A DNA stretch of 64,000 bases from Thermoplasmata archaeon (GCA_046758325.1 JBHHZZ010000001.1:17016-81015), one strand, 5' to 3'. Shown: positions 3,058 through 55,737, numbered from the stretch's first letter. The notes: generated by a model from the sequence alone, not told the origin. Numbers and translations: made by a program.

Positions 3058-3516
3058 TTGAGAAAGCCATGGGCGATCCGAAAGGATCAGGCCGCAGTGT
3101 CGCCGGTTATTGCTACCATCCTCATGGTGGCGATCACCGTCGTCCTGGCCGCAGTCCTGTACGTAATGGTATCAGGACTAGTCAGTGGTCCTGGGTCGAC
3201 GCCTGAAGTCATACTAGTCTCGGTCAGAAAGACCACAGACGGCACCAACTGGGAACTGACCTTCCAGGACGTTCCCACGGGGAAGAGCCTATCTTCCGTC
3301 TATCTGATTGTCTTCTACGGCAACGGAACCGTTGCACTGACGAAGACTGCCCTTAGCTCGCTAAGCGGCAACGCCCAGTTCGTACAGATAGATACTAGCG
3401 CAACAAGCATACAGGCCGGAGACAGGTTGCTGCTGAGCGTCACTACGTACGCAGCAGGCTCCACCTTCCAGTTGGTGGATGACAACGGCGTCCTAGCAAC
3501 GGGAACACTACAGTAG
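3058..3516 (+). CDS. Archaeal class III signal peptide (type IV pilin-like) protein
   Basis: MRKPWAIRKDQAAVSPVIATILMVAITVVLAAVLYV is a prepilin-like N-terminus. TTG start sits 8 nt downstream of GGAGG; an alternative ATG at 2938 overlaps the upstream gene. Confidence 0.5.
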   Translation: MRKPWAIRKDQAAVSPVIATILMVAITVVLAAVLYVMVSGLVSGPGSTPEVILVSVRKTTDGTNWELTFQDVPTGKSLSSVYLIVFYGNGTVALTKTALSSLSGNAQFVQIDTSATSIQAGDRLLLSVTTYAAGSTFQLVDDNGVLATGTLQ

Positions 3517-4439: not shown

Positions 4440-4552
4440 CCGTGACCATAGACTTCCAGGCGAACTTAAACCCTTCGTCGGCCATTTAATCAGGAACCCG
4501 CTGGAAATAGATAAATAGGGGCGCCCTGTCAGTATCCAATCCAGGTGGGGCC

Positions 4553-7500
4553 TTGGCCGAAGCAAAGACCATTAGGCAGACAATCAGCGTCACCCTCATT
4601 CTAGGTGGCATCTTCGCCCTCGCCGTCTTCATCCGGGCCTACTTCGCCTACGACCTGGCCCTCCGGGACTTCCTCGTGTCGGGAGGTTCCGACGCCTTCT
4701 ACTACAAACGCATCATCGACTACATCGTCTCCACGGGGAAGCACCTCGTCCGGGATGAGATGCTGAACTATCCCTTCGGAATGAACAACCCCAGGCCCCC
4801 CATCTACGCCTGGAGCGTGGCCCTCATCGGCATCCTGCTGGGCAACGTGCAGGGCTCCCTGGAGCTCGGAATATGGCAGAGCTTTCTCTTCTCCACCGCC
4901 TTCTGGGGCGCCCTCACCATCTTCCCCACCTACTTCCTGGCCCGGGACATCTTCGGCCGTCGGGTCGGGTTCGTGGCTGCATTCTTCTTGGCGATCCTCC
5001 CGGCCCACATTCAGAGGACGCCCCTGAGCAACGGGGACCACGACGCCCTCGTCCTCTTCTTCGTGGTGACTGCCTTCTACTTCTTCCTGAGGGCCTTGGG
5101 AGAGCTCAAGGAGAAGACCTGGGTGGACAACTGGATCAGGCCCACCACCGTATATCGGGGTTTGAGGCAGCTCATCGGGGAGAATAGAAGACCCGTCCTC
5201 CTATCGATCATGTCCGGCACGGCCATAGCGGTGGTGGCTCTCACCTGGCAGGGGTGGGCCTATGCCCCGGTGGTCGTAATAGCCTACTTCCTGGTCCAGC
5301 TCCTGGTGCACAAGTTGAGGAACCAGGACCCCCTGGGCACCCTCCTGTGCTTCACCGTGGCCCTGGGAACCGCTCATCTCCTGGCCGCTCCCTACTACAT
5401 CGCAACCGGCTTCGTCCGCACATGGTTCGACGTGCCCCTATTCCTCTTCGCCGCCTCTGTTGCCCTGGGCTTCCTCTTCGCCATCTTCCATCGCCTACCA
5501 TGGATGTTGGTCATCCCGCCCATCGTCCTTGGCTTCGGGGCCGGTCTTGCCATCGCATCCCTCTACAGTCCGGCGGTGGCCCAGACCCTGACCTCCGGTC
5601 TCGGTTACTTCGTCAGGACGAAGGTCTATGAGACCATCGCCGAGGCCCAGCCCCCTAACCTGAGCCAGGCAATCCTCTCCTTCGGCGCCGTGACATATTA
5701 CCTCTCCATGGTCGGCATCGTCTGGATGGCCATCCAGTTTGTTCGGAGGCCAAGGCTCCATTATCTCTTCGCCCTAGCGTGGAGCGCTGCGGCCATCTTC
5801 ATGGCCATGTCAGCCGTCCGGTTCATCTTCAACGCTTCCCCCGCCTTCGCCATCACCTCGGCGTGGGTGACGGTCCTCATCGTGGAGAGGCTGGGGCTAG
5901 AGCAGGTGAGGAAGGCCGTGGTATCCACGGGCGGGAGCAAATGGGTGGCCCTCAAGAGGGGGATAAAGGTCAGGCATGTGGCCGGAGCCCTCTTCGTTGC
6001 CCTTCTCCTCATCCTTCCTAACACCTGGTACGCCGTAGACGCTGCCATACCCTTCGAGAAGAAGCAGGAACTGGATCTGGAGGTGTACAGGAGCACGCCG
6101 GAGCCCCTGAGGCCCCAGGGCTACAGGGAGGGGAGTCTCTTCTACTTCGGCGCCTTCGGTTACAGTCTTCCCCTACCCAACAGGTACTTCCCGAAAGCTT
6201 GGGAATGGCTACGCCAGCAGGACGCCGACATAGTGCCGTATTGGGAGCGACCTGCCTTCCTGAGCTGGTGGGACTACGGGTTTGAGGCCATCCAAGAGGG
6301 CAGGCACCCGACAGTGGCGGACAACTTCCAGAACGGTCTCGAGTTCGCGGGTCACTTCCTGGCGGCCCAGAGCGAGAACGAGGCCATCGCGGTACTGAAC
6401 ATACGCCTCCTCCATGGAGACTTGACCCTCAACCGCGGCAGCTTCAGCGCGGGGGTCCGACAGGCCCTGGCCGATAAGGGCCTGGACCCTGATTTCGTGA
6501 AGGACGTCCTTCGCAGGCCCGCCGTCTACGTCCCCCTCATTAGGTCAGACCCGGATCGCTTCGGGGAATGGGATGTCCGACTCTCCAGCAAGAACGTGAG
6601 GGTGATCTTCCTCAAGACCGTGCTGACGGAGACGCTGGACCTGGACGGTCAGGCTGATCTCTATAGGGACCTGAGAAGCGCCACGGGCAACTCCGTCCTC
6701 TATTTCGCAGTCGACTCCCGACTCGTGCCCTTCTCAGGGACGAACACCGGGATATTCTACGCACCCATCAAGCTCACAGACCACAGAACGGTGGAATTGC
6801 CCGATGGCAGGAGCATACCCGTAGACTTCTACAGACTGGTGGCAGAGACAGACCGGGGGGAATATGACCTCGAAAAGGTGCCGCCAACGGCCAGGGTCAT
6901 CAACATCCGCATCGAGTACAAGGAGATGTTCTACAACAGCATGCTGTACAGAATCTTCTTCGGAACTCGCGGCCAGGACGTGGGTAAGGAGGACGATGGG
7001 CTTCCCGGGATATCTGGACAGCTGCAAGCAGAGGCACCCAGCCAAGGCCGAATGCTGAAGCACTTCAAAATGGTTTATCGAACGGCGTATTTCAACCCGA
7101 ACCCGCCCGACGAGGCCGCCAACAGAACGGAGGACTGGAGTGCCATCAACCTGTTCGACGCTCTGGAGCTGCAACAGAGCATCGAACGCGGGGAAGCAGA
7201 GGGGACCGTGGACATCTCGGCCCGAGCAAGTCTGCAACAGGGAATCGTCATCCTGAAGTACTACGACGGGGCCATCCTTAGGGGCCAGGTCACGACTCAG
7301 GCAGGCAGACCGCTGGAAGGAGTAAGGATAACAGTGCTCGACGACCTTTCCATACCCCACGATGTCACCTTCACAGACTCCAAGGGATTCTACGAAGCCC
7401 TGCTGCCCTTTGGGGAGGTCCGGGTGGTGGCCTCCGTGGGAGATGTGGACGGCGCTACCCAGACTGGGAGAACTGTCCTGGGCGAGAAAGAGCTGACGGT

Positions 7501-10500
7501 GAGCGAGGACCAGGCAATGAACCTCCCTCTGGACGTCGACGGCGATGGTCGCCCTGATTACCTCCTAGAGGAGCTGTTCCAGATCCAGGGGGCATCCCTG
7601 GAGGGCGTCGCCTTCCTGGACCTCAATGGAAACACGAGGAAGGACATGGAGGAAGGCACGCTTGAGGGACTGCAGGTGGAGGTTACGGACAGTAAGGGTG
7701 GTACCGTTGCCGCGACCCTGACGGACGCCGACGGGTTTTATCGGGTCACTGACCTCCTACCTGGCACCTACAACATCTCTCTCAGACGCGCGGACGCAAA
7801 GGTGGTGGAAACGGAAGTGACCATAACCCTGGGCGAGCGCAGGACTCAGGACCTGCCCGTCTTCGTCAAGCAACTGGCTGGCAGGGTGGTGGACGAGTTA
7901 GGTGGACCGGCGGAGGGAGCCCTAATCCAGCTGACGGAAGAGGCCACAGGCGTGCGGATCGTGACGGTGGCGAACGGCAAGGGAAACTACACCTTCGAAG
8001 GGCTCTTCGAGGGCAACTATACGCTGGAGGCCACCCTCGGAGAACGGGGCTCCCTCCCCAGGAGGTTGAGGATTGTACGGGGACAGAACACCACCGGAGA
8101 CCTAGAGGTGGAACCCATGGGCGAGCTCACAGGGAGATCCCTCCTTTCGTTTGTGCCGGCGCCTTTCGTGTCCTTTACATTGTTGAGGAGAGGGGACGGT
8201 CTTGCCGCAACCGTCATTAGCGACTCCTCAGCTCGCTTTGACGTGAGGTTGCCTGAAGGCACTTATGATGTCTACGCCTTGCACTTCGAGAGGAGCAGAC
8301 CCTACAGCTTTTTGGGAGCCCTCCAAGTGGGCGAAGGGAGCGTTCAGACTCTAGAGTTGAACCTCCAGCCCGCCTTGAGGGTCCATGGAAGCATCGTACA
8401 AGAGGACGGGACCGGGGCGGGCGGGGCCCACATTACTTTCGAGATGTCCGGGGCACAGACTACCCTCGTATCTGACAATGACGGCTCCTTCCTGGTGTAC
8501 CTACCACCTGGACCCTACAACTTGTGGGCCCTCTCGGAGGAGGGACAGCATGTATCCTCCTTGCTCTTGGAGACGACCACAAGTCTGGAGGTTCTCCTAG
8601 TAAGCGGGACGCCCGTGGAGGGAAGGGTTTTCTACGACAAAAACCGGAACGCCACGTGGGATGCCGGAGAGGGGCTGGAGGGCGTGCGGATTCAGCTCGT
8701 CGATTCCTCTGGAAGAGCCCTGTCTGTCATCACCCAGGAAGAGGGGAGGTACCGGGTTCCGCTCCTAAAGGAGACGAGCTACCGGCTGAGCATCGATGAG
8801 GCTGGTTTCACACCTATATCCCTCGGACCCTTCACGGCGACAGAGATGGCCGGCGTCGCCATCATCGAGCTGAGGCCTGAGACCCTTCAGGTTTCCGGAC
8901 GCCTCGAGGGGTCGGTGGACCTGGCGGGTATCGGTGTCCTCCTCGACGCCATCGGGGACGGCGCGACCTCCGTCGAGGTGACGACAGACGCCGCGGGCGC
9001 CTTCTCTGCCGAGGTCCTCCCTGGACTTTACAGGTTGGTAGTCGACGTCAGGGAGGACGGTGGCGGCGATGGCGTGAGAATCCAGAACCTGCAGGAGGAG
9101 ATTCTGAGGGTTCCCGTAGGAAAGGACGTGGGGCCCATCCTCATTCGAGTGGTCAGAAGGGTACTGGTGGAGGGGCAGATTGATGTGGAAGGGGGCCCCT
9201 TTGAGGGGGCACTTTCATTTATCGGCCCTGAGGAGGCCTCTCTCAACATCCAGGGGGAGTTCGCAACATACCTGCAGCCGGGAAACTACACTATCTACGC
9301 GACCGCCCAGCTGAACTTCAAGAAGTATGCGCTCCTGGAGCACAGAGACCTCACATCACCGGCAAACCTCTCCTTCACCCTAGATGAGGCCGCGGTTCTG
9401 TCAGGGGGTGTGAAGGTGGGAGATTCCATCGTCTCAAACAGCATTCCCCTGAGCTTCCTCCGCCAGGATGGGGCAAGGGTGGAGCTGCAGACTGAGGTCT
9501 CAGGGACCTACCTGGCAATCCTCTCTGGTGGTACATATCAGGTAAACCTCGAGTGGCGGGGCCTGGACGAGGTTGACGGCCTTCGGAGATTCGTTCGCTA
9601 TACCTTCAGTCAGGAGGTAACGGTCCAGGGAGGACAACCGGAACAGCTTGACCTCACGCTGAGCAGGTCCCTGGACAACGCTACCCTTGTGACTGAAGTG
9701 CTCCTCTCTGACCAGCTGGTCTCAGCTACCCTCACCTTTGAGGCAGCAAATGAGACAGCGGTGTCCACAACTGTCAAGGCTCCCGCTGGGACCTCTTTTG
9801 AGGTCTCTTTGGCGCCTGGAACCTACAGCATCTACGCCTACAGGGACACGGGCAAGTCGGTAAACCTGACCATGCTGGAGGTGGTGCCCTACATGAGCAA
9901 CGAGGCCACACTTCGCCTGGAGGCTGGATATAGAGTCGCCGGCGTCGTCTCTCTCGAGGATGGCACCAAGGAGACAGCGAGGATAGAGTTCACGTCGGTG
10001 GCAAGCATTAGCTTCGACTCCGACGGGCTAGGCATCTTCGAGGCGTATCTCCCCAAGGGCCAGTACCAGGTGACGGCCACCTCCCAGAGGCTCGAAAGGG
10101 GGATGCTCGTCGACTACGAGTTCTCTGGTCCCCTGGACATCAGGGAGAGTACCCTCCTGAACCTGCAGCTGGCCAGGGTAACCTTCCAGGGCGTGGAAGT
10201 CATATGGGATCCGTTGGAGAGGACCAGCGCCCTTCCAGGAGAGGGAGCGGTGTACACCCTGACCTTGAGGAACACGGGAAACGTGGAGGACAGCTTCAGA
10301 CTGGAGGGCCGACCCCAGGACTGGGGATTCGACTTCGACCCCCCAGTCGTGACCCTGCCCTTCGGTGAGAGTAGCGAGACTACCGTCAAGCTTACCATCA
10401 CCTCTCCCGACGACGCCGAGGTGGCTCATGAGCCTCTCGTCATCGAGGCCGTCTCCACCTCCAATGCCAGCGTTATGGAATTCACCCAGGTTGAGCTCGA

Positions 10501-11020
10501 CATACTTCAGATCAGGGGAGTCGTCCTACGTCTTTCGGAGGAGCCCCCTGTGCTGTCACCCGGGGCACTGGAGTACGAGGTCGAGGTGTTCAACGAGGGG
10601 AATGGGGAGGATATCTACACCCTCATCCTGACGAACCCAGAGACCCTCTCCATCCAGGGATGGAGAGCGAAGCTTCTCTACAAAAACCAGACCTCCCCAG
10701 ACAGGACGGAGGATGTCGCGGTCCCAGCTAGGGAGGCGAGGTCAGTGACCCTGAGGCTGGAGACAACGGGCCCCGTCAGCGCCTCCAAGGTTGTTCTGCT
10801 GGCCTTTTCCCAGGATGATCGCAATGTGGAGTCTTACCTAGAGGTGAAGCTCTCCTTCCCTTCCCTTGACATTCCCATTGAGGATGTAAGCCTCGAAGGG
10901 AAGAACGTGAGGTTGGGACCTCCGGAGTTCCCACTGATCCTCTACGCGGCCATAGCAGCGGCCGCCGTCCTCGCGGCCATCATCCTCATTCGGTACAGAC
11001 AGAAGAGGTGGCGCCGTTGA
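4553..11020 (+). CDS. aglB: Giant AglB/STT3 oligosaccharyltransferase (2155 aa): N-terminal multi-TM STT3 domain with WWDYG, then about 8 tandem CarboxypepD_reg/Cna-B (SdrD-B-like) beta-sandwich repeats and a C-terminal TM anchor
   Basis: WWDYGFEAIQ catalytic motif near nt 6268. Repeats of the form G.V.D..G.PLEGV.I.L.D......TDA.GFY....L.PG.Y.L span about nt 7250-10850. Hydrophobic LILYAAIAAAAVLAAIILI lies at the C-terminus. TTG start. Confidence 0.8.
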   Translation: MAEAKTIRQTISVTLILGGIFALAVFIRAYFAYDLALRDFLVSGGSDAFYYKRIIDYIVSTGKHLVRDEMLNYPFGMNNPRPPIYAWSVALIGILLGNVQGSLELGIWQSFLFSTAFWGALTIFPTYFLARDIFGRRVGFVAAFFLAILPAHIQRTPLSNGDHDALVLFFVVTAFYFFLRALGELKEKTWVDNWIRPTTVYRGLRQLIGENRRPVLLSIMSGTAIAVVALTWQGWAYAPVVVIAYFLVQLLVHKLRNQDPLGTLLCFTVALGTAHLLAAPYYIATGFVRTWFDVPLFLFAASVALGFLFAIFHRLPWMLVIPPIVLGFGAGLAIASLYSPAVAQTLTSGLGYFVRTKVYETIAEAQPPNLSQAILSFGAVTYYLSMVGIVWMAIQFVRRPRLHYLFALAWSAAAIFMAMSAVRFIFNASPAFAITSAWVTVLIVERLGLEQVRKAVVSTGGSKWVALKRGIKVRHVAGALFVALLLILPNTWYAVDAAIPFEKKQELDLEVYRSTPEPLRPQGYREGSLFYFGAFGYSLPLPNRYFPKAWEWLRQQDADIVPYWERPAFLSWWDYGFEAIQEGRHPTVADNFQNGLEFAGHFLAAQSENEAIAVLNIRLLHGDLTLNRGSFSAGVRQALADKGLDPDFVKDVLRRPAVYVPLIRSDPDRFGEWDVRLSSKNVRVIFLKTVLTETLDLDGQADLYRDLRSATGNSVLYFAVDSRLVPFSGTNTGIFYAPIKLTDHRTVELPDGRSIPVDFYRLVAETDRGEYDLEKVPPTARVINIRIEYKEMFYNSMLYRIFFGTRGQDVGKEDDGLPGISGQLQAEAPSQGRMLKHFKMVYRTAYFNPNPPDEAANRTEDWSAINLFDALELQQSIERGEAEGTVDISARASLQQGIVILKYYDGAILRGQVTTQAGRPLEGVRITVLDDLSIPHDVTFTDSKGFYEALLPFGEVRVVASVGDVDGATQTGRTVLGEKELTVSEDQAMNLPLDVDGDGRPDYLLEELFQIQGASLEGVAFLDLNGNTRKDMEEGTLEGLQVEVTDSKGGTVAATLTDADGFYRVTDLLPGTYNISLRRADAKVVETEVTITLGERRTQDLPVFVKQLAGRVVDELGGPAEGALIQLTEEATGVRIVTVANGKGNYTFEGLFEGNYTLEATLGERGSLPRRLRIVRGQNTTGDLEVEPMGELTGRSLLSFVPAPFVSFTLLRRGDGLAATVISDSSARFDVRLPEGTYDVYALHFERSRPYSFLGALQVGEGSVQTLELNLQPALRVHGSIVQEDGTGAGGAHITFEMSGAQTTLVSDNDGSFLVYLPPGPYNLWALSEEGQHVSSLLLETTTSLEVLLVSGTPVEGRVFYDKNRNATWDAGEGLEGVRIQLVDSSGRALSVITQEEGRYRVPLLKETSYRLSIDEAGFTPISLGPFTATEMAGVAIIELRPETLQVSGRLEGSVDLAGIGVLLDAIGDGATSVEVTTDAAGAFSAEVLPGLYRLVVDVREDGGGDGVRIQNLQEEILRVPVGKDVGPILIRVVRRVLVEGQIDVEGGPFEGALSFIGPEEASLNIQGEFATYLQPGNYTIYATAQLNFKKYALLEHRDLTSPANLSFTLDEAAVLSGGVKVGDSIVSNSIPLSFLRQDGARVELQTEVSGTYLAILSGGTYQVNLEWRGLDEVDGLRRFVRYTFSQEVTVQGGQPEQLDLTLSRSLDNATLVTEVLLSDQLVSATLTFEAANETAVSTTVKAPAGTSFEVSLAPGTYSIYAYRDTGKSVNLTMLEVVPYMSNEATLRLEAGYRVAGVVSLEDGTKETARIEFTSVASISFDSDGLGIFEAYLPKGQYQVTATSQRLERGMLVDYEFSGPLDIRESTLLNLQLARVTFQGVEVIWDPLERTSALPGEGAVYTLTLRNTGNVEDSFRLEGRPQDWGFDFDPPVVTLPFGESSETTVKLTITSPDDAEVAHEPLVIEAVSTSNASVMEFTQVELDILQIRGVVLRLSEEPPVLSPGALEYEVEVFNEGNGEDIYTLILTNPETLSIQGWRAKLLYKNQTSPDRTEDVAVPAREARSVTLRLETTGPVSASKVVLLAFSQDDRNVESYLEVKLSFPSLDIPIEDVSLEGKNVRLGPPEFPLILYAAIAAAAVLAAIILIRYRQKRWRR

Positions 11021-37867: not shown

Positions 37868-37920
37868 TTAAATAGAATTTGGCACAAATCTCGAACCGCT
37901 TCATACGACCATCGAACTCA
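37868..37920 (-). promoter_or_regulatory. Promoter: TATA (ccttaaatagaat) plus two TCGAAC-core boxes 21 nt apart
   Basis: cacaaatcTCGAAcc at 37883-37897 and cgaccaTCGAActca at 37906-37920; same architecture as at 41297-41352 and 42272-42325. Confidence 0.45.
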
Positions 37921-37928
37921 CGTGGCCC

Positions 37929-39023
37929 TCACAGGGCTTCAAGAAGATCGAGACCTTGTATCAGCCCGTATCCGTATAGGTCGTCGTGGGGGACCTCCTG
38001 GTCATCCAGCTCGCGGGCCGTCTCCATCAAAGCCATCTTCAGCTGGAGCACGCCACTCGAAGATGATGCGATCTTGAGAGAGGGCATGCCCTGTAGGATC
38101 AGGGCGAGGAGGGCGGAGACGAAGGCAGCGGCGGCTGAGGTGCCCGAGATCCTCACGTACTTTCCGTCGAGACTCGCGGTTACCAAGTCCACGCCAGGGG
38201 CCACCGCCTCCGGCTTCTTGTTGGGGTCCGTCCTACCTTCAGGGTTGAAAGGTCTCGGCCCATTGTTGCCCCCCTGGCTGAAGGGCGCTATTCGGAGGGA
38301 GCTGTCCACCGCTCCTACAGCTATGACGAGGGGTTCCGAGGCAGGGCTCTGAACATCTCGAGCGGCGGACCCCTCGTTTCCCGCAGCCGCCACGACAAAG
38401 ATGCCCTTGGACACCGCTTCCGCCGCTGCGGCCGCGACCTCGTCCTCCTGGACGGGGCGCGTGGAGCCCCCTAGGGAGAGAGAGATGATGTGAGACCTAG
38501 TGTTGTTTCCAAAGGGGTCCATACAGAACGTGATGCCTTCCAGGACGACTGAGGAGCCGCTCTCCCCCGTCTCCGTGATGGCCTTTACCACAACGAGGGA
38601 GACCTTGGGCGCGAGGCCCGATACCTGCCCCTGAGCGGCGATAAGGCCCACCATGGCGGTCCCGTGGCCCTCGTCGTCGTAGGGGTCTTCCCTCCCGTTG
38701 ACAAGGTCCTTCCACGCCAGAAGGTTAACATCCGATAGTCCAGGATGCTGCAAATCTACGCCAGTATCGACGACGCAGAGAATGACTCCGCTACCGTCTA
38801 GCCCCTTCGCATGCAGCTGTGTAGCCTGTGTGACGGACCAGGCCCACTCGTTACCTGGGACCAAACCTAGGAGCCTCTCCAGCTCCGGGAGGACCGGCAG
38901 CAGGGTGATTCCCACGATTCCTAGAAGCAGAACGATGACGACGACGGCCGCCCACCTCCGGCGTCGCCCGGACCTTGGCTCAGGGCCTGGTAAAGCCGTA
39001 TCCCTCATGCTCTGGATTTTCAT
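37929..39023 (-). CDS. Subtilisin-like S8 serine protease with N-terminal membrane anchor/signal
   Basis: VVDTGVD...HGTAMVGLIA...GTSAAAAFVSA gives the D/H/S triad. Confidence 0.8.
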   Translation of the reverse strand: MKIQSMRDTALPGPEPRSGRRRRWAAVVVIVLLLGIVGITLLPVLPELERLLGLVPGNEWAWSVTQATQLHAKGLDGSGVILCVVDTGVDLQHPGLSDVNLLAWKDLVNGREDPYDDEGHGTAMVGLIAAQGQVSGLAPKVSLVVVKAITETGESGSSVVLEGITFCMDPFGNNTRSHIISLSLGGSTRPVQEDEVAAAAAEAVSKGIFVVAAAGNEGSAARDVQSPASEPLVIAVGAVDSSLRIAPFSQGGNNGPRPFNPEGRTDPNKKPEAVAPGVDLVTASLDGKYVRISGTSAAAAFVSALLALILQGMPSLKIASSSSGVLQLKMALMETARELDDQEVPHDDLYGYGLIQGLDLLEAL

Positions 39024-39093
39024 AGGAGTCAGCGGGTATTAGGCCCTTGGGTCTCTTCTGCTCCAGGCGCAGTCCCAGCTCTCCCGCCTAGGG

Positions 39094-41034
39094 TTACCCT
39101 CCATCCCCCTTTCTCATGAGCTTGAACACGAGGAAGCCTAGGACCGCCAAGAGAGTGGCTATCCCAACCGCGACATAGAACAAGCTCGTGCTGGTCAGGG
39201 GAGGCGGGAAGTCGCTGAAGGTCAGGGTGATGCTTTCGGAGCTGTTGAGCTCAGTCTGGGCCGATTGAACGCCCGAGTCATAGAGTGAGCCCATGTACGA
39301 GGTCACGTAACGAGCCTGGACTGTGTAGCTGCCCCCGGGCAGGAGCAGCACGACTGTGCCGTCTGGACCGGTAAGGCCAGCGTCATAGACGAGACCCGTG
39401 GAATCTGTCAAGCTGACGAACACGCCCGAGAGCGCCTGTCCGTCTCCCGACATGGTGGTGACGGTGAGCTTGTAAACGGCCGTCCTGAAGGCGATGATAT
39501 CGTTGCCCACCACGTCACCGCTTCCGTTGAAGACGTCGACCCCCCGCCAGGCTGCCAGGAGGGCGTATGTGCCTACCGGGACCTGGCTGAGGGTGACCTG
39601 GCCGCTTCCGTCGGTCTTGTAGGGGCCGAGTTTCTCCCCGTTTGGATGAATGAAGATCAGCGAAGCCCCCGCCAGGGCAGAGCCGTCTGAATCCTCAGCC
39701 TGGAAGACGGGGTAGTACACCTGTGTGTCGATTACCAGAGGGTTCGACTCTGTGATGTTGGACTGGACATCCTGAAGCGAGGAGGCGACCCTCACGTCTT
39801 GCCAATAGACCTGGAACTCGTACGCGGCCTTGGCCATGGTAAAGTTCACCATTCCATCCGGGTCCGTCGTCTTGGCGTCTACGATGAAGCCGCCACTTAC
39901 CAGTTCCACCCTCGCACCTGCCAGGGGCACGCTCTTGGAGTCGACCGTCTTTACGTTTGCATAGACGGGCAGCCCGTCGATGAAGAACGTCGATGTAGCG
40001 GTATCGGGATAATCGTCATAGTCGAACTGCTGGAAGAAGTGGTAGTAGTTGTGACCGTTGTTGTCGAGCGCCCAAACCTGCATCGTGTATTCCCCGATTG
40101 CCTGGTCCGTGTAGTTCCAGACGACCTCGAACACGCTGTCGTAGCTCCTAGGGGTGCCAGAAATGTGGGCCATGGAGACGTTGTCCAGGAGGACGACGCC
40201 GAACGGAGACATGAGGGTAAGGTTGACCCAGCGGATGTCGTACCCGCCTAGGGGGTCGGTAACATTGGCCTGGATGTACACCGTCTTGTTTTCAGCCACA
40301 GGATCGAAGTTGATTTCTGGGTTCCGATTCCAGTCCAGGGTCGCGATTGTGGCAACATCCAGGGAATCGGGTCCACGAAAGCTAATGCGGCTGTTGACCT
40401 GGGGTGTGTCGTAATGAAGCCAGATCCCTTGCAGAGCTCCCGGCGTGACGGTCATCCGCAGCTCGATGGAAGATCCGGCTCGGAAGGTGTGAGGGGACAC
40501 AAAGGTCGCGTTCCAGCTAGCCAGTGTCGGTGTGACTGGAAAGTCCTGACTGCCCAAGTTCTCCTCATGGACCAACGTGGAGGTCGTCGTATTCAGCTCG
40601 AAAATCTCCAGGGTGACCTGCGCGTTGCTGCTCGCTCCCGTAGAGGAATTGGCCCAGATTCGCAGGGTGAATCCATCCGCGCTGAAATCGCCCACCAAGG
40701 CAGGGACTGAGAACCACTGCATCACTTTCTGCGTTCCCTCGACCAGAACGCTTACGTTCACGTCGTTGAAGTCCAGGGTCGTATCGAAGTAGGTGAGTGT
40801 GCTGCCACCGTCCGGCAAGGGCTTTGCCGTCTCTGTTGCGTTGACCGAGTGGAGCAGAAAGGTCATGTCTTTTGTCACGCCGTTGACGGCGTGGACCGTG
40901 GGGGCCGGAAGCGTGACCACGAGTAGGGCGGACAGGACGAGCAGCGGAAGAGCGAGCAACGTCAAGGCCTTGGACGCAGTCGATCTCGTTCCTGCATACC
41001 GGAGAGGGGTCTTTTCTCGGGTCATGGGAAGCAC
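39094..41034 (-). CDS. Large secreted glycoprotein candidate: signal peptide, CarboxypepD_reg-like repeats, many N-x-S/T sequons, C-terminal TM anchor
   Basis: GARVELVSGGFIVDAKTTDPDGMVNF..., GASLIFIHPNGEKLGPYKTDGSGQVTL..., GVFVSLTDSTGLVYDAGLTGPDGTVVL...; at least 14 sequons; C-terminal LFYVAVGIATLLAVLGFLVFKLMRK. Confidence 0.55.
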   Translation of the reverse strand: MLPMTREKTPLRYAGTRSTASKALTLLALPLLVLSALLVVTLPAPTVHAVNGVTKDMTFLLHSVNATETAKPLPDGGSTLTYFDTTLDFNDVNVSVLVEGTQKVMQWFSVPALVGDFSADGFTLRIWANSSTGASSNAQVTLEIFELNTTTSTLVHEENLGSQDFPVTPTLASWNATFVSPHTFRAGSSIELRMTVTPGALQGIWLHYDTPQVNSRISFRGPDSLDVATIATLDWNRNPEINFDPVAENKTVYIQANVTDPLGGYDIRWVNLTLMSPFGVVLLDNVSMAHISGTPRSYDSVFEVVWNYTDQAIGEYTMQVWALDNNGHNYYHFFQQFDYDDYPDTATSTFFIDGLPVYANVKTVDSKSVPLAGARVELVSGGFIVDAKTTDPDGMVNFTMAKAAYEFQVYWQDVRVASSLQDVQSNITESNPLVIDTQVYYPVFQAEDSDGSALAGASLIFIHPNGEKLGPYKTDGSGQVTLSQVPVGTYALLAAWRGVDVFNGSGDVVGNDIIAFRTAVYKLTVTTMSGDGQALSGVFVSLTDSTGLVYDAGLTGPDGTVVLLLPGGSYTVQARYVTSYMGSLYDSGVQSAQTELNSSESITLTFSDFPPPLTSTSLFYVAVGIATLLAVLGFLVFKLMRKGDGG

Positions 41035-41035
41035 G

Positions 41036-41278
41036 CTACCGGGTGACTAAGCTCTTCGCTGCAGCCGCAATCGCGGCCCCGATACCACCCCCTGCGGCTC
41101 CACCGGCGAGGGCGTTCGAGACCGCTGAGACCACCGTGTAGCCATGCGTTCCCTGCGGGATGTGGGCGAGGGCGACGCCCAGCCCCGTGACGTCTCCTGT
41201 TGTCACCGACATAATCCCCATGGTGACTGCTCCGATCGCCGCCCCAACGGCGGCCGCGATGGGTATTGATATCATCAT
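41036..41278 (-). CDS. Small Gly/Ala-rich (glycine-zipper-like) membrane peptide, first gene of the surface operon
   Basis: 80 aa with AAAVGAAIGAVTMGIM...GGAAGGGIGAAIAAAA. Its stop is 1 nt from the downstream start. Leaderless, with the ATG about 24 nt from the TATA. Confidence 0.45.
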   Translation of the reverse strand: MMISIPIAAAVGAAIGAVTMGIMSVTTGDVTGLGVALAHIPQGTHGYTVVSAVSNALAGGAAGGGIGAAIAAAAKSLVTR

Positions 41279-41296
41279 TGTTTCGATGAGGCACTG

Positions 41297-41352
41297 TGTT
41301 TAAGAGCGCTTTGGCTCAAGCAACGAACAGTGTGGAACAAGCTTCGAACAAG
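41297..41352 (-). promoter_or_regulatory. Promoter: TATA (tgtttaagag) plus two CAAGCnnCGAAC boxes 21 nt apart
   Basis: caagcaACGAAc at 41317-41328 and caagctTCGAAc at 41338-41349. Confidence 0.5.
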
Positions 41353-41593
41353 AGTCTCTCAGTCATGGACTAGGCGCACGGAAGGCGAACGGGACCGCCC
41401 TAGGATGCCCGCAGACGGCTGCTGGGGAAGGGACTGGACACCGGCATCGGCCGCGACCGGTCGGTTTTCGGGAACGTGCATCGAGAACCGGTGCGCTCCT
41501 CGGTTCACTTGATGGAGAGTGCCGCTGTCTGGCTCCTTGAGGACACGCTTAGGGTGTGTTGGAAGAGCCGGCAAAAGAAAACCGGGGGAAGGG

Positions 41594-42250
41594 CTAGTGC
41601 CTCTTCCGCAGGGCCACCGTGGCAGCTAGCAGGACGATGACGACCGCCAGTGTGATGAGGGCCCAGCCCATGGCGGTGAGGCCGTCGGCTCCCAGTATGG
41701 TGCCGATGTCTGAGGTCGTCGGGGATATCTCGATGTACTGGACCGAGAAGTGCGTGATCACGAAGACGTAGACCTCCGCACCACCTGCATCCACTGAGCT
41801 GGTCACGCCCTGGTAGTTCACCCCCTCCGAGACCTCGATGGATAGACTGCTTTCATCACTCTCGACGTAGGTTTCTATGAAGTCCTTGTTGACGAGGAGG
41901 GTCACCAGATTGGTCGGGACCCCGTCCTCCGCCTCTATGGAGAGGGCCTTTGTGTCCGTGGAAAGGGAGACGGTTACCCTGTCGATCCCGTCCGGCGTGC
42001 CGGCGTTGACGACCAAGGCTGCCCACGGCTCGATGTCATCTGTAAAGATGAACGTGGCGACGCCTATCCTGGCGGCGTCGTTAGCGGTGCCGATGGCCGA
42101 TTCCGTGTCCTTTCCTGGTACTGACGGAAGGTCGATCGTCAGAGGGGACTGGGCGGAAGCCAGACCCCCGAAGACGAGGGCCAGACCGATGAGGAAGGCT
42201 ACCCTCACCATTGCTGCCCCCGTTTCCATCCTCGTAGTCCTCAGCTCCAT
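41594..42250 (-). CDS. Secreted protein with signal peptide and C-terminal TM anchor
   Basis: N-terminal VAFLIGLALVFGGLASAQS; C-terminal WALITLAVVIVLLAATVALRKRH. Confidence 0.5.
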   Translation of the reverse strand: MELRTTRMETGAAMVRVAFLIGLALVFGGLASAQSPLTIDLPSVPGKDTESAIGTANDAARIGVATFIFTDDIEPWAALVVNAGTPDGIDRVTVSLSTDTKALSIEAEDGVPTNLVTLLVNKDFIETYVESDESSLSIEVSEGVNYQGVTSSVDAGGAEVYVFVITHFSVQYIEISPTTSDIGTILGADGLTAMGWALITLAVVIVLLAATVALRKRH

Positions 42251-42271
42251 GGTACTGGCTCTGCCAGGAGA

Positions 42272-42325
42272 CCTTATATTCTGTTTGGCACAAGCCTCGA
42301 ATCGCCTAGCACAGGCTTCGAACGG
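42272..42325 (-). promoter_or_regulatory. Promoter: TATA (ccttatattc) plus two CA(A/G)GCyTCGAA boxes 21 nt apart
   Basis: caagccTCGAAt at 42291-42302 and caggctTCGAAc at 42312-42323; the ATG is about 27 nt from the TATA (leaderless). Confidence 0.5.
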
Positions 42326-42396
42326 AATGAACTGCTATTATCGATACTAAAAACAGAAGCTTTTTACCAGCCCCTAGGCTATTTCCGTTTGATTAC

Positions 42397-42678
42397 ATGG
42401 TTTCCCTGAGCGAAGTTGAGCCCTTCTTTCGGGTATCCTTGATGGGATTTGCCCTGCTCCTTACGATCCTCATGGGCGTGACCACCTACCGTGTGAAGAG
42501 CGGGAAGCTCCTCCTGGTAACTCTGGGATTCCTGGCCTTCTTCATCAAGGGACTTCTCCTGACCTTGGGAATCTTCTTGACCGCGTTCAGAGACGCTTTC
42601 CAGGCCAACCCGGAGATAATGCTGATGGACTTCGCCATCCTCGTCCTGATCTACGCGGGGATGGTAAAGGGCTCCTGA
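42397..42678 (+). CDS. Small 3-TM membrane protein; paralog of the 19462-19752 gene
   Basis: 93 aa with three hydrophobic helices; alignable with the 19462 ORF. Confidence 0.45.
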   Translation: MVSLSEVEPFFRVSLMGFALLLTILMGVTTYRVKSGKLLLVTLGFLAFFIKGLLLTLGIFLTAFRDAFQANPEIMLMDFAILVLIYAGMVKGS

Positions 42679-42688
42679 GGACAGGCCC

Positions 42689-43210
42689 ATGGGAGAGGAG
42701 GAGGTCCTGGACCTCGAGAGACGCAGAATGGTCTACCAGTTCATCAAGTCCCATCCGGGGCTCCACATGAGGGGCCTGGAGAAGCGCCTAGGCATCTCCC
42801 TGGGGGACCTAAGGTACCACCTGGACTATCTCGAGAAAAAGGAGTTGATAACCAGCCGGAGCGATGGCTACAGGAAGACTTACTTCTCCACTAGGGATGT
42901 CTACCTCCAGGATAGGGACCTTCTGGCCCTGCTGCGGCAACGTGGGCCCAGGAAGCTCATCCTGCATCTCATGCTCACCCAGAACGCCTCCTTCGACGAG
43001 CTCCGCCAGGTCTTGGGAGTGTCGAAATCCACCCTCTCCTTTCACTTAAGAAAGCTCACAGACAAGGGTATCGTGAAGGTCCTGAGGCGGGAGGGAAAGA
43101 ACGCCTACTACGTGGAGGACAAGGAGAACGTTGCAGAGCTGCTGATTACCTACAAGGGGAGCTTCCTGGACGAAGCGGTTGACAGGGTGTTGCAGGTCTG
43201 GCTTCCCTAG
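42689..43210 (+). CDS. Transcriptional regulator with two tandem wHTH domains
   Basis: Two repeats: ...FIKSHPGLHMRGLEKRLGISLGDLRYHLDYLEKKELI... and ...ASFDELRQVLGVSKSTLSFHLRKLTDKGIV.... The first resembles the 19802 regulator. Confidence 0.6.
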   Translation: MGEEEVLDLERRRMVYQFIKSHPGLHMRGLEKRLGISLGDLRYHLDYLEKKELITSRSDGYRKTYFSTRDVYLQDRDLLALLRQRGPRKLILHLMLTQNASFDELRQVLGVSKSTLSFHLRKLTDKGIVKVLRREGKNAYYVEDKENVAELLITYKGSFLDEAVDRVLQVWLP

Positions 43211-43968
43211 GCCTCCTCCGCGTGGACGAGAATGCCGCCCTCCTTGATCTCCATGGGGACGATGTACTCCAAGTGGCTGGAGCCCTTGTACTTCTCGATG
43301 GAGATGAACCTCTTGATGCCGTTCTCGTGACGGAACTTGTACAGTCTGATCTCGCCCCTGGCCAGGAATGTCTCCAGCTTCGATCCTGTGTTATCCGGTG
43401 TCTCCACCGTCATCAGGGCCGTTTTCCCCGACTCCGTGAGGAAGCGGATGAAGGACTGGGTACTCACGTTCTCCTCGAAGTCCCGCATGCAGAACTGCCT
43501 CAGAGCCGTCAGACTGTCGATGACGACCCTCTGGTAGTCCCTCCTCGTGAAGAGGTTCTTGAGGGCCTGTTGCAGGGAGTGGACCGTCACCTCCCGGGAT
43601 TCCCCCTCAGGACTCTTCCTGATCTTGAAGGGAACGTTTTTCATGGGTACGGCGCCAATCTCCGAGGAGATCTCCAGAATCGGTTTGGGCTCGAACCTGC
43701 GGATGTCGGAATTTGCGTCCAGGATCTCCACGTCCCCGACCTTCCATCCATAGGACTCCATGTTATACCTTATCTCGTTTGGCGGCTCCTCCAAGGCAAC
43801 GAAGAGGACCCTCTGCCCCTCCTTCAGCCCCTGCAGGAGGAACTGCATGCATAGGGTGGTCTTCCCACTGCCCAGGGGGCCGGAGACGATGTAGGGCCTT
43901 TTGGGGATGAGGCCTCCCTTGAGCATGCGATCGACCCCCTCTATGCCCGTCGTAACCTTGTCCACCAT
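43207..43968 (-). CDS. KaiC-like single-domain ATPase
   Basis: GIEGVDRML...VSGPLGSGKTTLCMQF. Confidence 0.7.
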   Translation of the reverse strand: MVDKVTTGIEGVDRMLKGGLIPKRPYIVSGPLGSGKTTLCMQFLLQGLKEGQRVLFVALEEPPNEIRYNMESYGWKVGDVEILDANSDIRRFEPKPILEISSEIGAVPMKNVPFKIRKSPEGESREVTVHSLQQALKNLFTRRDYQRVVIDSLTALRQFCMRDFEENVSTQSFIRFLTESGKTALMTVETPDNTGSKLETFLARGEIRLYKFRHENGIKRFISIEKYKGSSHLEYIVPMEIKEGGILVHAEEA

Positions 43969-43971
43969 GGC

Positions 43972-45027
43972 CTACCTCTCGATCAGCCTCTTCGCCACGG
44001 CCTTCTCCTTCCTCTCCCTCAGGACCTGCAGTAGGGAAAGGGACTGTCTCAGCACATCCTCATGTCTGCCCAGGTGAAGGTATATCATGACGCGATAGAT
44101 GCGGGGGCTCAGGTCTCCGACGTCGATTCCCCTCACCTCGCAGTCCTCCCACAGCCTTATGATCTCCTCTAGGAACTCGGAGGCCTCCTCGGACATGATG
44201 TCCTGCAGGAAGTGGCCCACGAAACCGTCGGTCCTCTGGCCGTGGAGGGAAACCTCTCCGTCCGCCAGGACGAATATTCCCTTGCTCCCGATCACCATCG
44301 GCCTGAAACGATCGTCGAAGGGGGAGCCCCTGAGCCTCTCTATGGAGATGGCTCTCCTCACGGCGTTGGACTCAAACCACTTATGGAGCCTGATCTCGCC
44401 CCTGGCAAGCAGGAACTCCGTCTCGACTTCTCCGGGGTTCGGTAGCTCCGTGATGATGAGGGTTGTGGCCTCCAACTCCGAGAGGAACCGCATGAAGGAC
44501 TGGATCAGTATGCGCCTGTCCTCTCCCCTCATTCCAAACATCTTGAGGCTGGTCATGGAGTCGATGACGACCCTGGTGTACCTCTTCCCCGTGGCCTTGA
44601 AATGCCCCTGAAACTCCTGCTTGAGCATCTTCTGGACTGAGTGGATGGACACTTCCATGACCCGGAGCTGTTGGCTCTTCCTCATCTCAGTGACCTGCTC
44701 CATGTCGCGGACGTCGAGGGTGGTGCCCACATCGATGATCGTCTTTGTCTTGCTGTGGGAACGGATGTCGGGGGTGGCATCGAGGATACGAAGACGGTCA
44801 AGACTCCACCCGAAATGGGCCATGTTGGTCTTGATCTCGTTGGGTGGCTCGTCTACCGCCACCATGATGACGCTCTCGCCGTTCTTTATGCCCTCCAGGA
44901 GGAAATGGATGCCGAGAATGCTCTTGCCGCTTCCGGGAGGGGCTGTGACCACGTATGGACGGCCGGGAATCAGACCTCCGTAAAGCATCTTGTCTAGACC
45001 CTCGATCCCCGTCGATACCCTGTTCAT
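43972..45027 (-). CDS. KaiC-like ATPase with roughly 100 aa helical C-terminal extension
   Basis: GIEGLDKML...VTAPPGSGKSILGIHF plus a C-terminal tail. Confidence 0.7.
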   Translation of the reverse strand: MNRVSTGIEGLDKMLYGGLIPGRPYVVTAPPGSGKSILGIHFLLEGIKNGESVIMVAVDEPPNEIKTNMAHFGWSLDRLRILDATPDIRSHSKTKTIIDVGTTLDVRDMEQVTEMRKSQQLRVMEVSIHSVQKMLKQEFQGHFKATGKRYTRVVIDSMTSLKMFGMRGEDRRILIQSFMRFLSELEATTLIITELPNPGEVETEFLLARGEIRLHKWFESNAVRRAISIERLRGSPFDDRFRPMVIGSKGIFVLADGEVSLHGQRTDGFVGHFLQDIMSEEASEFLEEIIRLWEDCEVRGIDVGDLSPRIYRVMIYLHLGRHEDVLRQSLSLLQVLRERKEKAVAKRLIER

Positions 45028-45445
45028 CAGGAACCGCCTAGGTTCGTTCCATGGAGCCCTGGGGCTGATAAGCTTATCCTTTCAATTCTTACGGGCGATA
45101 AGGTGGAGGGGTTCTGCCGTGGCACTCATTCAAACCGCCACCCACCTACGCCGCCGCGATGCACTCACCAAGGGGCGATGCGTTCAGGGCCATGACGAGG
45201 TCGTGAGTCTCCGAGAAAGATAGGGTCATAGCGGGGCCTGGAAGTTCAGTCCGGGGATGACGGTTTGAGACCGCCCCCGGGCATTTGAACCAGGGATCTC
45301 CGGGTTATGAGCCCGGCGGGATTTTAGGCTCCGACTCCCCGGGAAGGGCATCCGGGATCCGGGGTTTCCTAGCTACCCCACCCCGCTTCTGCTTCATAGA
45401 CCGTAGCGTCGAATATTAATGTATCGCCACCCGGAGGCCAATGGA

Positions 45446-47825: not shown

Positions 47826-48752
47826 GTGGACTTCCAGCATGAGCTCCAGAGACTCTTGGACCAGGTGCCGCCGGGCCGAGTGACATCCTTCAAGGCCCTG
47901 GGAGAGGCGCTGGGAGATGCGAGGGCCGCCAAGGCCATCTTTCAGATTCTCAGGGACGAGAGGCCCCGGGGTTGGCATCGGGTGGTAAGGTCTGACGGAA
48001 GCCTCTCCTTTCCTGAAGCCTCTCGAACGCTGAGGACTGAGGGAGTCAGCGTGTCGGCTGACCGGGTCGGTGGGTTCCAGCAGTCCATGTTTGCGGAGTT
48101 CGACTCCCCGAGGCCCTTGGAGAGACTGCGCGAGGAGCAGAGGGCCCTCTCCCGAAGGGTAGTTCTGGAAGACCTCTTCGGAGAGCTTGCGACCGTGGCG
48201 GGGTTCGACGTCTCCTACGAGGGACAACGGGCATATGCAGCCGCCGTTGTGCTGGATTGGCCTGACCTCGGAGTCGTGGAAGAGGCGACCGTCAGAACCC
48301 GTGCATCCTTCCCCTACATCTCCACCTATCTCGCGTACCGGGAGTTTGAGCCCATCGCCCGCTGTTATCGACGTCTTCAACGCGAGCCGTCCCTCATCCT
48401 GGTGGACGGAAACGGCGTCCTGCACCCGGCATCCTTCGGTATCGCCTGCCTCACAGGCGTCAAGCTGGACAGGCCCACCATCGGGGTCGCCAAGAGCCTG
48501 CTGATGGGGACCCTTGAGGCCGTCCCCATGAAGCAGGGGGAGGTGTCACCCGTCGCCCACCGGGGAAGGGTCCTGGGCTATGCCTACAAGTCGGCCAGAC
48601 AGGGAAAGCCCATCTACATCTCACCGGGGCACAAGGTCAGCCCTCAGACCGCAGTGAGACTGGTGAAAGGCCTATGCAGGGACAGGATTCCGGAGGCCCT
48701 GCGCCTGGCTCACCTGGCCTCTCGGCGGCTGAAGAGGGAGAGGGCGGCCTAG
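47826..48752 (+). CDS. nfi: Alkyltransferase-like (ATL/MGMT DNA-binding) domain fused to endonuclease V
   Basis: N-terminal ...AKAIFQILRDERPRGWHRVVRSDGSL has Trp in place of the MGMT active-site Cys. C-terminal GFDVSY...AAAVVLD...LVDGNGVLHPASFGIACLTGVKLDRPTIGVAKSLL is endonuclease V. Confidence 0.7.
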   Translation: MDFQHELQRLLDQVPPGRVTSFKALGEALGDARAAKAIFQILRDERPRGWHRVVRSDGSLSFPEASRTLRTEGVSVSADRVGGFQQSMFAEFDSPRPLERLREEQRALSRRVVLEDLFGELATVAGFDVSYEGQRAYAAAVVLDWPDLGVVEEATVRTRASFPYISTYLAYREFEPIARCYRRLQREPSLILVDGNGVLHPASFGIACLTGVKLDRPTIGVAKSLLMGTLEAVPMKQGEVSPVAHRGRVLGYAYKSARQGKPIYISPGHKVSPQTAVRLVKGLCRDRIPEALRLAHLASRRLKRERAA

Positions 48753-54289: not shown

Positions 54290-55584
54290 TCAGAGCTGTT
54301 TGAACTCCCTGGTGAGAAGGGCTCTCTGCCTCTCCACCAAGGCGAGAAGGTCGATGGGTATGATGAGCTTCGCACCCGTGGACGGTACGGTGTCCTTCAG
54401 GGTCTGGAGGAGCTTCATCACCTCGGTAAAGCTGTTCTGGACGAAGAGGTACTCCACGCCGTCCAGAAGCACGACTCCCTTCTCCTCCCTGGACAGGAAC
54501 TTGTCGATCCTGTCCGCCAAGGATTCCAGGGAACTGACGGCTTCCTTTTCCTTCGCCTGTCCGTTGGTGAGCCAGTAGACCTTCGCACCTTCCAGGTCCC
54601 AGCTTCCCTTCAGCTTGTCAGGATAGGTGCGGGTTATGCATAGCCCGCTATGCCCCTTCTTCAGCTCTTGGGCGAAAACCTTGAGGGCCTTGTTCTGCCC
54701 CTGGGTAACCAGGTAGGCCTCTCCAGGCTCGAGCTCGGGGGGCTTCTCCGACCTCGACCCGTCAGCCCTCATGTCCCGGCCCTGGAAGCCGTTCCTCCTC
54801 TTTTTCACGTGCCGAGCTGCGATGTAGAGGCCCACGAGGGACGTCATGAACAGCAGGAGAAACATGGTGGCGGCCCTGTCCTGGGAGTCCTCCGCGAAGG
54901 CGGTGCCCACGCTGAAGCTGGAGGTTGCGGCCACCTCCTTGACCCCTCCATAGGTCGCGACAACGTAGAGGTCCTGTCCCACCCCCGACACCGGCCACAC
55001 GCTTGAGGCCCTTCCCTCGGGGGTCGGGAACCTGCTTTCGGCGAAGACCAAGTCACCAGGTGACCTGTACCACTGGAAACTGACCTCCTCCAGGAGGGTG
55101 GCGTTTCCCGCGTATGTCAGGATGGCGGTGGCGGTGGCCGTCCCTCCGGGGTCGACGACGGGACTGCCTAACTCCAGCCGGATGTCCATCACCACGGCCA
55201 TGTCCTCGGGATTGAAGGCCTCAAAGGACAGGTTGTAGGCCAGGGATGTGGCGTCTGATGTCAAGACGACGTCTAGGTAGTAGACGCCTGTCGTCGGCAG
55301 GAGCAGGGTGGAAGAGGCTGAGGCCGAGCGGGGTCCCTCAGTGTCTAGGATGGCGGACTCCACGGTCACATTTCCATCCGGGAGGAACCATCGGAAGGTC
55401 ACGGTGTCGGTCCCATCGGGCGTGGAGGAGTAGGAGGCCATCGCCCTGGCCGTAGCGGTCATCCCTCTCACGTATGCGGGGGAGTCCATAGAGGCGTAGA
55501 TGGCCTCAGGACTGGCGGTGCCGCCTGGAATCAGCGAGAGGGAAAGCAGACTCAGGACTAGGAGGAAGGGGTACAGCCCTTTCA
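54290..55584 (-). CDS. Membrane receptor-like protein: signal peptide, extracellular domain, one TM, cytoplasmic DUF835 (degenerate KaiC/RecA-like) domain
   Basis: MKGLYPFLLVLSLLSLSLIPG signal; TM MFLLLFMTSLVGLYIAARH; C-terminal GLCITRTYPDKL...VYWLT...VVLLDGVEYL...KLIIPIDL matches the DUF835 pattern. Confidence 0.5.
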
Positions 55585-55737
55585 TTGACTCGGACGAAGC
55601 CATCGAAGGGTCTGCTTAAATCCCTAATGCAACCATTTTCTTTCTTGATTCCATCTATCGATATCGACCGTTAGGCGTGAGAGAACCGGAGCTCGGAGGC
55701 TTTAAGACGGCGTATCCCTTCAAACCCCTGGAAGACC

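Follow-up and report, generated by a model that had tools for sequence, protein, structure and literature searches.

In cyanobacterial KaiC the partner protein KaiB docks on the B-loop, residues 116-123 (112-126 more broadly; PMC12084410). In archaea, KaiC-like ATPases have been proposed to act as signalling hubs (Makarova, Galperin and Koonin 2017, as cited in PMC5847659 and PMC6393860), and KaiC ATPases associated with type IV pili (T4P) have been described (PMC4858521). We examined positions 42397-45445 of a 64,000-nt stretch of Thermoplasmata archaeon DNA (GCA_046758325.1 JBHHZZ010000001.1:17016-81015; hereafter the window), where two KaiC-family ATPase genes, K351 and K253, face a gene pair encoding a small membrane protein, memb93, and a tandem winged helix-turn-helix (wHTH) regulator, wHTH173. 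The best protein match likewise gives the source as a Thermoplasmata archaeon metagenome-assembled genome (MAG). We think it probable, though well short of certain, that the span holds two independent units that abut: a split, two-tier KaiC-like ATPase operon, and an autonomous memb93-wHTH regulator of envelope genes.

The four open reading frames of the initial annotation are all present where it had placed them, and Pfam and hydropathy agree with the identities it gave them (Table 1). The tail-to-tail arrangement of the memb93-wHTH and K351-K253 pairs is also borne out: the stop codons of the convergent wHTH173 and K253 genes overlap in a CTAG at 43207-43210. This leaves no room for terminators, so that the two transcripts must overlap at their 3' ends. 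The same CTAG overlap occurs in L001 and L064 (loci recovered in our scans are designated L). A search of the window at Rfam gathering thresholds gave zero matches, and a PADLOC scan for defence systems matched only generic wHTH and P-loop proteins.

Table 1. Positions of the genes, predicted signals and protein segments discussed in the text, counted from the first nucleotide of the window.
Feature	Position	Strand	Description
memb93	42397-42678	+	93 aa, three hydrophobic segments (hydropathy); first gene of memb93-wHTH operon
wHTH173	42689-43210	+	173-aa cytoplasmic regulator, two winged-helix domains (Pfam)
K253	43207-43968	-	KaiC-family ATPase, 253 aa, PF06745; second operon gene
K351	43972-45027	-	KaiC-family ATPase, 351 aa, PF06745; first gene of bicistronic operon
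K351 three-helix bundle (residues 269-350)	43978-44223	-	Modelled helices 269-298, 304-318 and 322-350, pLDDT about 90
K351 insertion (residues 88-125)	44653-44766	-	Conserved sequence, disordered in monomer model; KaiC CI B-loop position
BRE/TATA promoter of K351-K253 operon (predicted)	45066-45081	-	Contains 12-bp palindrome 45067-45078
Two conserved boxes upstream of BRE	45083-45103	-	AAGAATTG 45083-45090; CCTTATC 45097-45103 (holds second GATAAG)
Envelope-protein island	37929-42250	-	Subtilase, 646-aa surface protein, small80, memb218 (Pfam, hydropathy)
Subtilase	37929-39023	-	Envelope island
646-aa surface protein	39094-41034	-	Envelope island; C-terminal anchor
small80	41036-41278	-	Envelope island
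memb218	41594-42250	-	Envelope island
Candidate operator A	42287-42322	+	Two GGCACA-N5-CGAA direct repeats, 21 bp apart, memb218/memb93 divergent intergenic region
Candidate operator B	41313-41348	+	Second copy of same 40-nt element, 75% identical; abuts small80 promoter BRE
Single exact GGCACAAATCTCGAA site	37881-37895	+	Far end of island, near start of 81-aa open reading frame
KaiC-like ATPase K249	1650-2399		PF06745, 249 aa
Walker-A-less KaiC-like protein	2400-2966		PF06745 (31 bits), DUF7090; 188 aa
DUF835 receptor	54290-55603		DUF835
Initiator-type tRNA-Met gene	45229-45387	-	Between SCP2 and KaiC operon; two non-canonical inserts

Both ATPases score far above the PF06745 (KaiC) cutoff of 26.6 bits (K253, 145 bits; K351, 136 bits), and they are paralogues, 44% identical over 257 aa by BLASTP. 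The K253 start codon lies 3 nt past the K351 stop (junction GAGAGGTAGgccATG) with a Shine-Dalgarno-like GAGAGG in front, and the two genes are predicted to be translationally coupled. Among 28 K351 sequences the Walker A motif GSGKS (G32, G34, K35), the D59-E60 pair, the Walker B motif VVIDS (D156) and R233-G234 are invariant; the 59 K253 orthologues conserve Walker A (GSGKT), an EE pair, Walker B (VVIDS), FLARGEI and KY(K/R)GS. Judged by motif retention, both paralogues are catalytically intact. An AlphaFold2 (AF2) model of K351 has a mean predicted local distance difference test (pLDDT) score of 78, and the top Foldseek matches to it are PH0284 (2dr3) and KaiC CI (4tl7), with probability 1.00 and target-normalised template modelling (TM) scores of 0.81-0.85; this test of the RecA/KaiC core fold covers the K351 model. 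Among solved proteins, profile search ranks KaiC first (CI ahead of CII), then PH0284, PH0186 and SSO2452.

Within NCBIfam, the pair scores 107.6 and 91.3 bits against the KaiC equivalog (cutoff 408) and 68-98 bits against the archaeal KaiC equivalogs (cutoffs 248-307). For ArlH, K253 reaches 34 bits (cutoff 215) and K351 has no match, and the RadA and RadB models give 20-28 bits (cutoffs 172-403). Since the KaiC models rank far above ArlH, RadA and RadB and yet all scores fall below the cutoffs, K351 and K253 are, on these profiles, a distinct subfamily within the known KaiC-like class. No archaellum genes appear among the nearby genes in the Pfam results.

The pairing of the two ATPases is highly conserved. 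A genome scan recovered K351 orthologues (50-86% identity) at 60 loci, all of them in uncultured Thermoplasmata or 'Methanobacteriota' MAGs, and K351 is followed by a K253 orthologue at every one of the 58 loci that extend downstream. The initial annotation had allowed that the KaiC-like genes might be generic RadA paralogues scattered at random; this is not so, given so specific a pair and the higher scores of the KaiC models. The commonest architecture is a K351 with a C-terminal extension followed by K253. L050-L052 instead carry two genes of about 260 codons each with no extension, and in some lineages the pair is fused into a protein of about 533 aa, in which a basic linker of about 30 residues connects an N-terminal K351-like to a C-terminal K253-like domain. 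Around the pair, a backbone of EndoV (divergent), amidohydrolase, RNase HII, SCP2, tRNA-iMet, K351, K253, ftsZ, Rpp14, proteasome alpha (PsmA), SBDS and exosome genes is conserved in that order, and by this criterion the pair belongs to the conserved housekeeping core of a large uncultured Thermoplasmata clade. The EndoV gene of the window (47826-48752) is a fusion in which an MGMT-type DNA-binding domain precedes Endonuclease V (PF01035 + PF04493); it and the amidohydrolase gene are divergent at almost every related locus.

K351 comprises a RecA/KaiC core (residues 1-256), interrupted by a conserved insertion (88-125), and a C-terminal three-helix bundle. The insertion has pLDDT below 50, yet many of its columns hardly vary or do not vary at all, such as H91, D99, V100, G101, R116, S118 and E125; K253 carries a homologous insertion. 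In the profile alignment position 87 is placed at KaiC residue 111, and the alignment picks up about 35 residues later than in KaiC. By this alignment the insertion of both proteins sits at the position of the KaiC B-loop. The bundle bears out the helical C-terminal extension reported for the 351-aa protein. It is weakly conserved and fast evolving, with R312 as the sole invariant residue, and is absent from the L050-L052 orthologues (259-261 aa), from the fused proteins and from K253. A phmmer search with the C-terminal 90 residues of K351 against 1.8 billion representative sequences returned a single match. Most likely the rings of K351 and K253 would stack as CI and CII do in KaiC, the K351-type tier taking the N-terminal place; the resulting ATP-driven switch would accept a partner docking on the expanded, conserved loop at the B-loop position.

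These ATPases could also be taken for RadA-paralogue (aRadC or 'RAD55-like') mediators of recombination or repair, not signalling ATPases, as their NCBI protein name, RAD55 family ATPase, would have it. The EndoV fusion gene and RNase HII lie upstream in the same block, and Sulfolobus SSO2452, which we take to be a RadA paralogue (the search result gives its name only), is among the sequence matches. We regard a repair role as unlikely, however, because KaiC and PH0284 are much closer than RecA and RadA in both sequence and fold, the RadA and RadB scores of 20-28 bits compare with cutoffs above 170, and EndoV and RNase HII are separate transcription units, with SCP2 and a tRNA gene between them and the pair. 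Moreover, distant lineages that carry the pair have neither EndoV nor RNase HII as a neighbour.

The second unit has a different distribution. The wHTH173 protein consists of a PF24266 domain (residues 10-69, 56 bits) and an ArsR-type HTH_5 domain (residues 88-130, 48.5 bits), and it passes NCBIfam NF033788 (ArsR/SmtB) with 66.7 bits against a cutoff of 55 (residues 88-152). Its homologues form 66 clusters, all of about 172-200 aa, and in every context inspected a membrane open reading frame of about 90 codons ends about 10-15 nt before the wHTH gene. A metagenome scan with a 13-sequence alignment as query yielded 80 wHTH loci. The KaiC pair is convergent and adjacent in 10 of these, and is absent from the 49 others that have at least 1 kb of downstream sequence (thus 10 of 59 informative loci). 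The 10 KaiC-adjacent loci form two sub-clades with wHTH identities of 82% and 51-54%. Among the 49 KaiC-less loci are close relatives, 62-77% identical, in which the opposite flank of the module still carries memb218, small80, the large surface protein and subtilase. The wHTH gene in turn is lacking at about 50 of the KaiC-pair loci, and in one MAG a module and a KaiC pair lie on different contigs (L062 and L004). Judged by this distribution, memb93-wHTH is an autonomous module, separable from the KaiC pair.

The module appears instead to belong with the envelope-protein island on its other side. The island genes accompany memb93-wHTH in L077, L079, L081 and others without KaiC, and the simplest reading of the gene order is that the whole island including the module (37929-43210) is an insertion between K253 and p391/ftsZ in this lineage. 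Tandem GGCACA-N5-CGAA repeats link the two at the level of DNA. Candidate operator A is the pair that adjoins the BRE (transcription factor B recognition element) in the memb218 promoter; the TATA box of memb93 follows 30-60 nt further downstream. A paired repeat is found about 110 nt upstream of memb93 in L001, L061, L063, L066, L071, L072, L077, L078, L079 and L082, both with and without a KaiC pair nearby, and extra pairs precede island genes in L071, L072, L077, L079, L081 and L082. These repeats are most likely the operator of wHTH173, as far as comparative evidence can indicate, and memb93 and wHTH173 are probably a local regulator of the envelope island. The module would have arrived with the island; wHTH173 would most likely bind the repeats just upstream of the BRE, both in its own divergent region and at other island promoters, and memb93 probably supplies the signal input.

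The initial annotation had combined all of these parts into one phospho- or ATP-driven KaiC circuit for envelope genes. Its regulator of envelope genes is probably present, in the form of the wHTH module, but the part it gave to KaiC is unsupported. In such a circuit the KaiC pair would modulate wHTH173, and through it the envelope genes, with the palindrome upstream of K351 (see below) as the circuit's operator. The tight convergent arrangement with overlapping stops, the hub proposal for archaeal KaiC-like ATPases (as cited in PMC5847659) and the apparent control of envelope genes by the wHTH protein all speak for it. We nevertheless consider it improbable, since the KaiC pair lacks the wHTH gene in about 50 loci, the module lacks KaiC in 49 of 59 informative loci (among them the 62-77% identical relatives that keep the island), no GGCACA-N5-CGAA repeat occurs upstream of K351, and the palindrome is unique, not conserved in its symmetry and consistent with a BRE/TATA pattern.

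Some results weigh against our own explanation by two independent units, the first of them a KaiC-like switch. The convergent, overlapping-stop arrangement recurs in two sub-clades, at wHTH identities of 82-100% and 51-54%, and there may thus be some coupling between the units, for example by antisense interference at the 3' ends. The AF2 model of a fused relative (P0019), built from a 7-sequence alignment, has a mean pLDDT of 56 and a predicted TM score (pTM) of 0.41, which is too poor to judge the packing of the domains. In addition, KaiC S431/T432 align with the Leu-Leu of the K351 FLLARG motif (at about residues 206-207) in the profile alignment to CII, and the corresponding stretch of K253, compared by eye only, reads ETFLARG. 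With Leu-Leu at these positions in K351, a KaiC-type phospho-cycle lacks support.

The palindrome GATAAGCTTATC, to which the initial annotation had drawn attention upstream of the KaiC genes, is indeed perfect at 45067-45078; the second GATAAG, which had been put at 45095, lies at 45097-45102. Neither 12-bp palindromes nor GATAAG are enriched in the window, where we counted 17 perfect 12-bp palindromes (20 +/- 4 in shuffled sequences) and 23 copies of GATAAG (17 +/- 4 expected), and there is no further copy of GATAAGCTTATC in these 64 kb with up to 2 mismatches. On the coding strand the site reads GGATAAG-CTTATCAG and has its centre about 42 nt before the K351 ATG, with the CTTATC(A) half as the TATA box and the GATAAG half at the BRE position. 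It has the properties of a core promoter: an A/T-rich, TATA-like octamer, a purine-rich BRE before it, a distance of about 35-50 nt from the start, and a resemblance to other promoters of the genome. Within the window, look-alikes precede the genes at 55854 (GAAGCTTTATCC) and 24071 (GATAAAGGTTATAT) and psmA (AAGGTTTATTAT).

Ten close loci (K351 71-86% identical) keep a block of about 50 bp, CCTTATC-N7-AAGAATCG-N-AAGGATAnGyTTATCA, with diverging flanks. Neither GATA nor TTATC varies between the window and these loci, but the two-fold symmetry is broken in six of the ten (GATAGGCTTATC, GATACGTTTATC). More distant loci have GCAACGTTTATCG, GCAAATCCTTAAAC and GAAGGTTAATATCC at the same position, where TTTATC or CTTAA occurs. 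Taken together, the position, the retention of TTATC, the loss of symmetry and the look-alike promoters indicate that the palindrome is, on sequence comparison, the ordinary BRE/TATA of the K351-K253 operon. The initial annotation had itself named this result, with no other copies, as one that would speak against its reading. The pair would thus be expressed from an ordinary archaeal promoter that is palindromic by chance in this genome.

The palindrome and the upstream CTTATC box could also be read together as an operator that overlaps the promoter and is bound by a dimeric transcription factor. The conservation of CCTTATC, AAGAATCG and GATAnGyTTATCA in 10 relatives with diverging flanks would fit a bound site, as would the recurrence of CTTATC 30 bp upstream of the copy at the TATA position (45097-45102 and 45067-45072). 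We think this quite unlikely, because the symmetry is gone in 6 of the 10 relatives while the TATA-like half is invariant, the 64 kb hold no further copy, and the same class of sequence occurs at unrelated promoters of the window. The boxes upstream of the BRE are a different matter. CCTTATC is the same in the window and all of its 10 close relatives, and AAGAATCG nearly so. Most loci of the clade with about 52% identity (L013-L048), about 30 of them, have a GATTCTCA box, also upstream of the BRE, whose distance from the K351 ATG is constant at about 64 nt. From their conservation, the two boxes of the window may form a candidate binding site for a regulator. The AAGAATCG of the window clade contains the reverse-complement core GAATC, at a position similar to that of the GATTCTCA box.

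Downstream of the pair, ftsZ is found in the same orientation at 50 of 58 loci, mostly immediately after K253; in the remaining ftsZ-linked loci a subtilase gene, or the wHTH module with p391, stands between K253 and ftsZ. The ftsZ gene has its own conserved promoter, TTTTAAATA, and the GATTCTCA box, considered as a sign of co-regulation, is fixed upstream of K351 and inconsistent upstream of ftsZ. The distant lineages with short or fused forms (L050-L052, L070) have differing neighbours (UbiA, AIR synthase, PAC2, FeoB). Since these neighbours are unrelated, the link with ftsZ is inherited synteny only. The place of the pair immediately upstream of ftsZ in about 50 genomes might suggest that, with a partner recruited by its expanded B-loops, it serves FtsZ-dependent division or the cell cycle as a KaiC-type switch or timer and is not an environmental sensor; we consider this very improbable. 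No conserved partner gene beside the pair is common to L050-L052 and L070; two membrane proteins are shared by L050-L052 only. At about 4500-5900 of these three loci, the two genes that immediately precede the KaiC pair, in the same orientation, encode conserved proteins that may be partners specific to this lineage. Judged by eye, one (about 275-300 aa) has a hydrophobic stretch at its N-terminus, and the other (about 180 aa) has several such stretches.

The other KaiC-type genes to which the initial annotation pointed, those at 1650, 2400 and 54290, are all real; nothing ties them to K351/K253 as parts of the same circuit. K249 is 22-26% identical to K351 and K253 and lies in a pilin cluster (1650-3516), which consists of this KaiC-like ATPase, the Walker-A-less protein (an inactivated KaiC, or iKaiC) and an archaeal type IV pilin, and which resembles the T4P-associated KaiC systems (PMC4858521). 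The 188-aa DUF7090 protein and the DUF835 domain encoded at 54290 share 27% identity.

The initiator-type tRNA-Met gene that separates SCP2 from the KaiC operon is interrupted twice: alignment to the intron-less L047 and L049 shows an insert of about 44 nt at 45324-45367, in the D-loop region, and another of about 40 nt at 45243-45282, in the T-loop. ARAGORN finds a 75-nt tRNA-Met once both inserts are removed, and only 45269-45347 in the raw sequence. The inserts are shared by L003 and L004; L043 has a canonical anticodon-loop intron instead, and the gene is uninterrupted in L047 and L049. Elsewhere in the window, 4553-11020 encodes a 2155-aa protein with an N-terminal STT3 domain (AglB-type oligosaccharyltransferase) and, towards its C-terminus, a very long series of Ig-like domains, CarboxypepD_reg and SdrD_B among them, and 202-1620 encodes an OMP-decarboxylase/HUMPS-family domain fused to an RraA-like aldolase domain.

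The palindrome and the single KaiC-wHTH circuit can thus be set aside as a false lead in favour of two testable units. Neither would surprise a specialist. An always-paired and sometimes fused KaiC-like ATPase with an insertion at the KaiB docking position offers a handle on the partners of archaeal KaiC-like proteins, and memb93 with its tandem-wHTH protein and a comparatively supported candidate operator makes a compact candidate for an envelope-regulating system of uncultured Thermoplasmata.

Among known systems, cyanobacterial KaiC, a CI-CII hexamer (1u9i; 4tl7 for CI), is the best sequence match in the PDB (E down to 1e-48) and has the same fold, and its Walker A motif, catalytic Glu pair, Walker B motif and Arg-finger region are shared with K351 and K253. 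It differs in that its two domains form one polypeptide, whereas here they are encoded by two genes and the single-chain version is found only in relatives of other lineages. Further differences are the S431/T432 phosphosites where K351 has Leu-Leu, an insertion at the B-loop position that is roughly 20-35 residues longer in K351 and K253, and the extra three-helix bundle of K351, which KaiC lacks. The Pfam results for the genes at 30091-50792 contain no KaiA or KaiB family. PH0284 and PH0186 of Pyrococcus (2dr3, 2zts) are likewise single RecA-like domains of about 250 aa, and PH0284 is the top structural match to K351 (2dr3, E 3e-19, target TM 0.84) at only 25% identity; the 2dr3 entry holds six chains. 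The difference from both is that K351 and K253 are an obligate paralogous pair with a B-loop insertion.

The class of archaeal signalling hubs is of the same general kind, with expanded KaiC paralogues and iKaiC domains, and the window too has a cluster of KaiC, iKaiC and pilin genes (1650-3516) and a DUF835 receptor. The hub hypothesis builds on operonic links to sensor or output domains; K351 and K253 have no conserved sensor or output neighbour and lie in a housekeeping block by ftsZ. The adjacency of Haloferax cirB, cirC and cirD was considered as an analogy and dropped, since the cir genes are dispersed according to their published description.

For the second unit the closest described systems are the ArsR/SmtB regulators, whose subfamily cutoff the second domain of wHTH173 passes. 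The wHTH173 chain differs from them in having two wHTH domains, the N-terminal one being PF24266, and in its strict coupling to a membrane protein of about 90 aa. The operator of a typical ArsR/SmtB repressor is an inverted repeat, whereas the candidate operator of wHTH173 consists of direct repeats 21 bp apart. As in the ArsR/SmtB systems, however, the wHTH173 gene appears to be autoregulatory and divergent from its target gene, with the repeats in the intergenic region between them.

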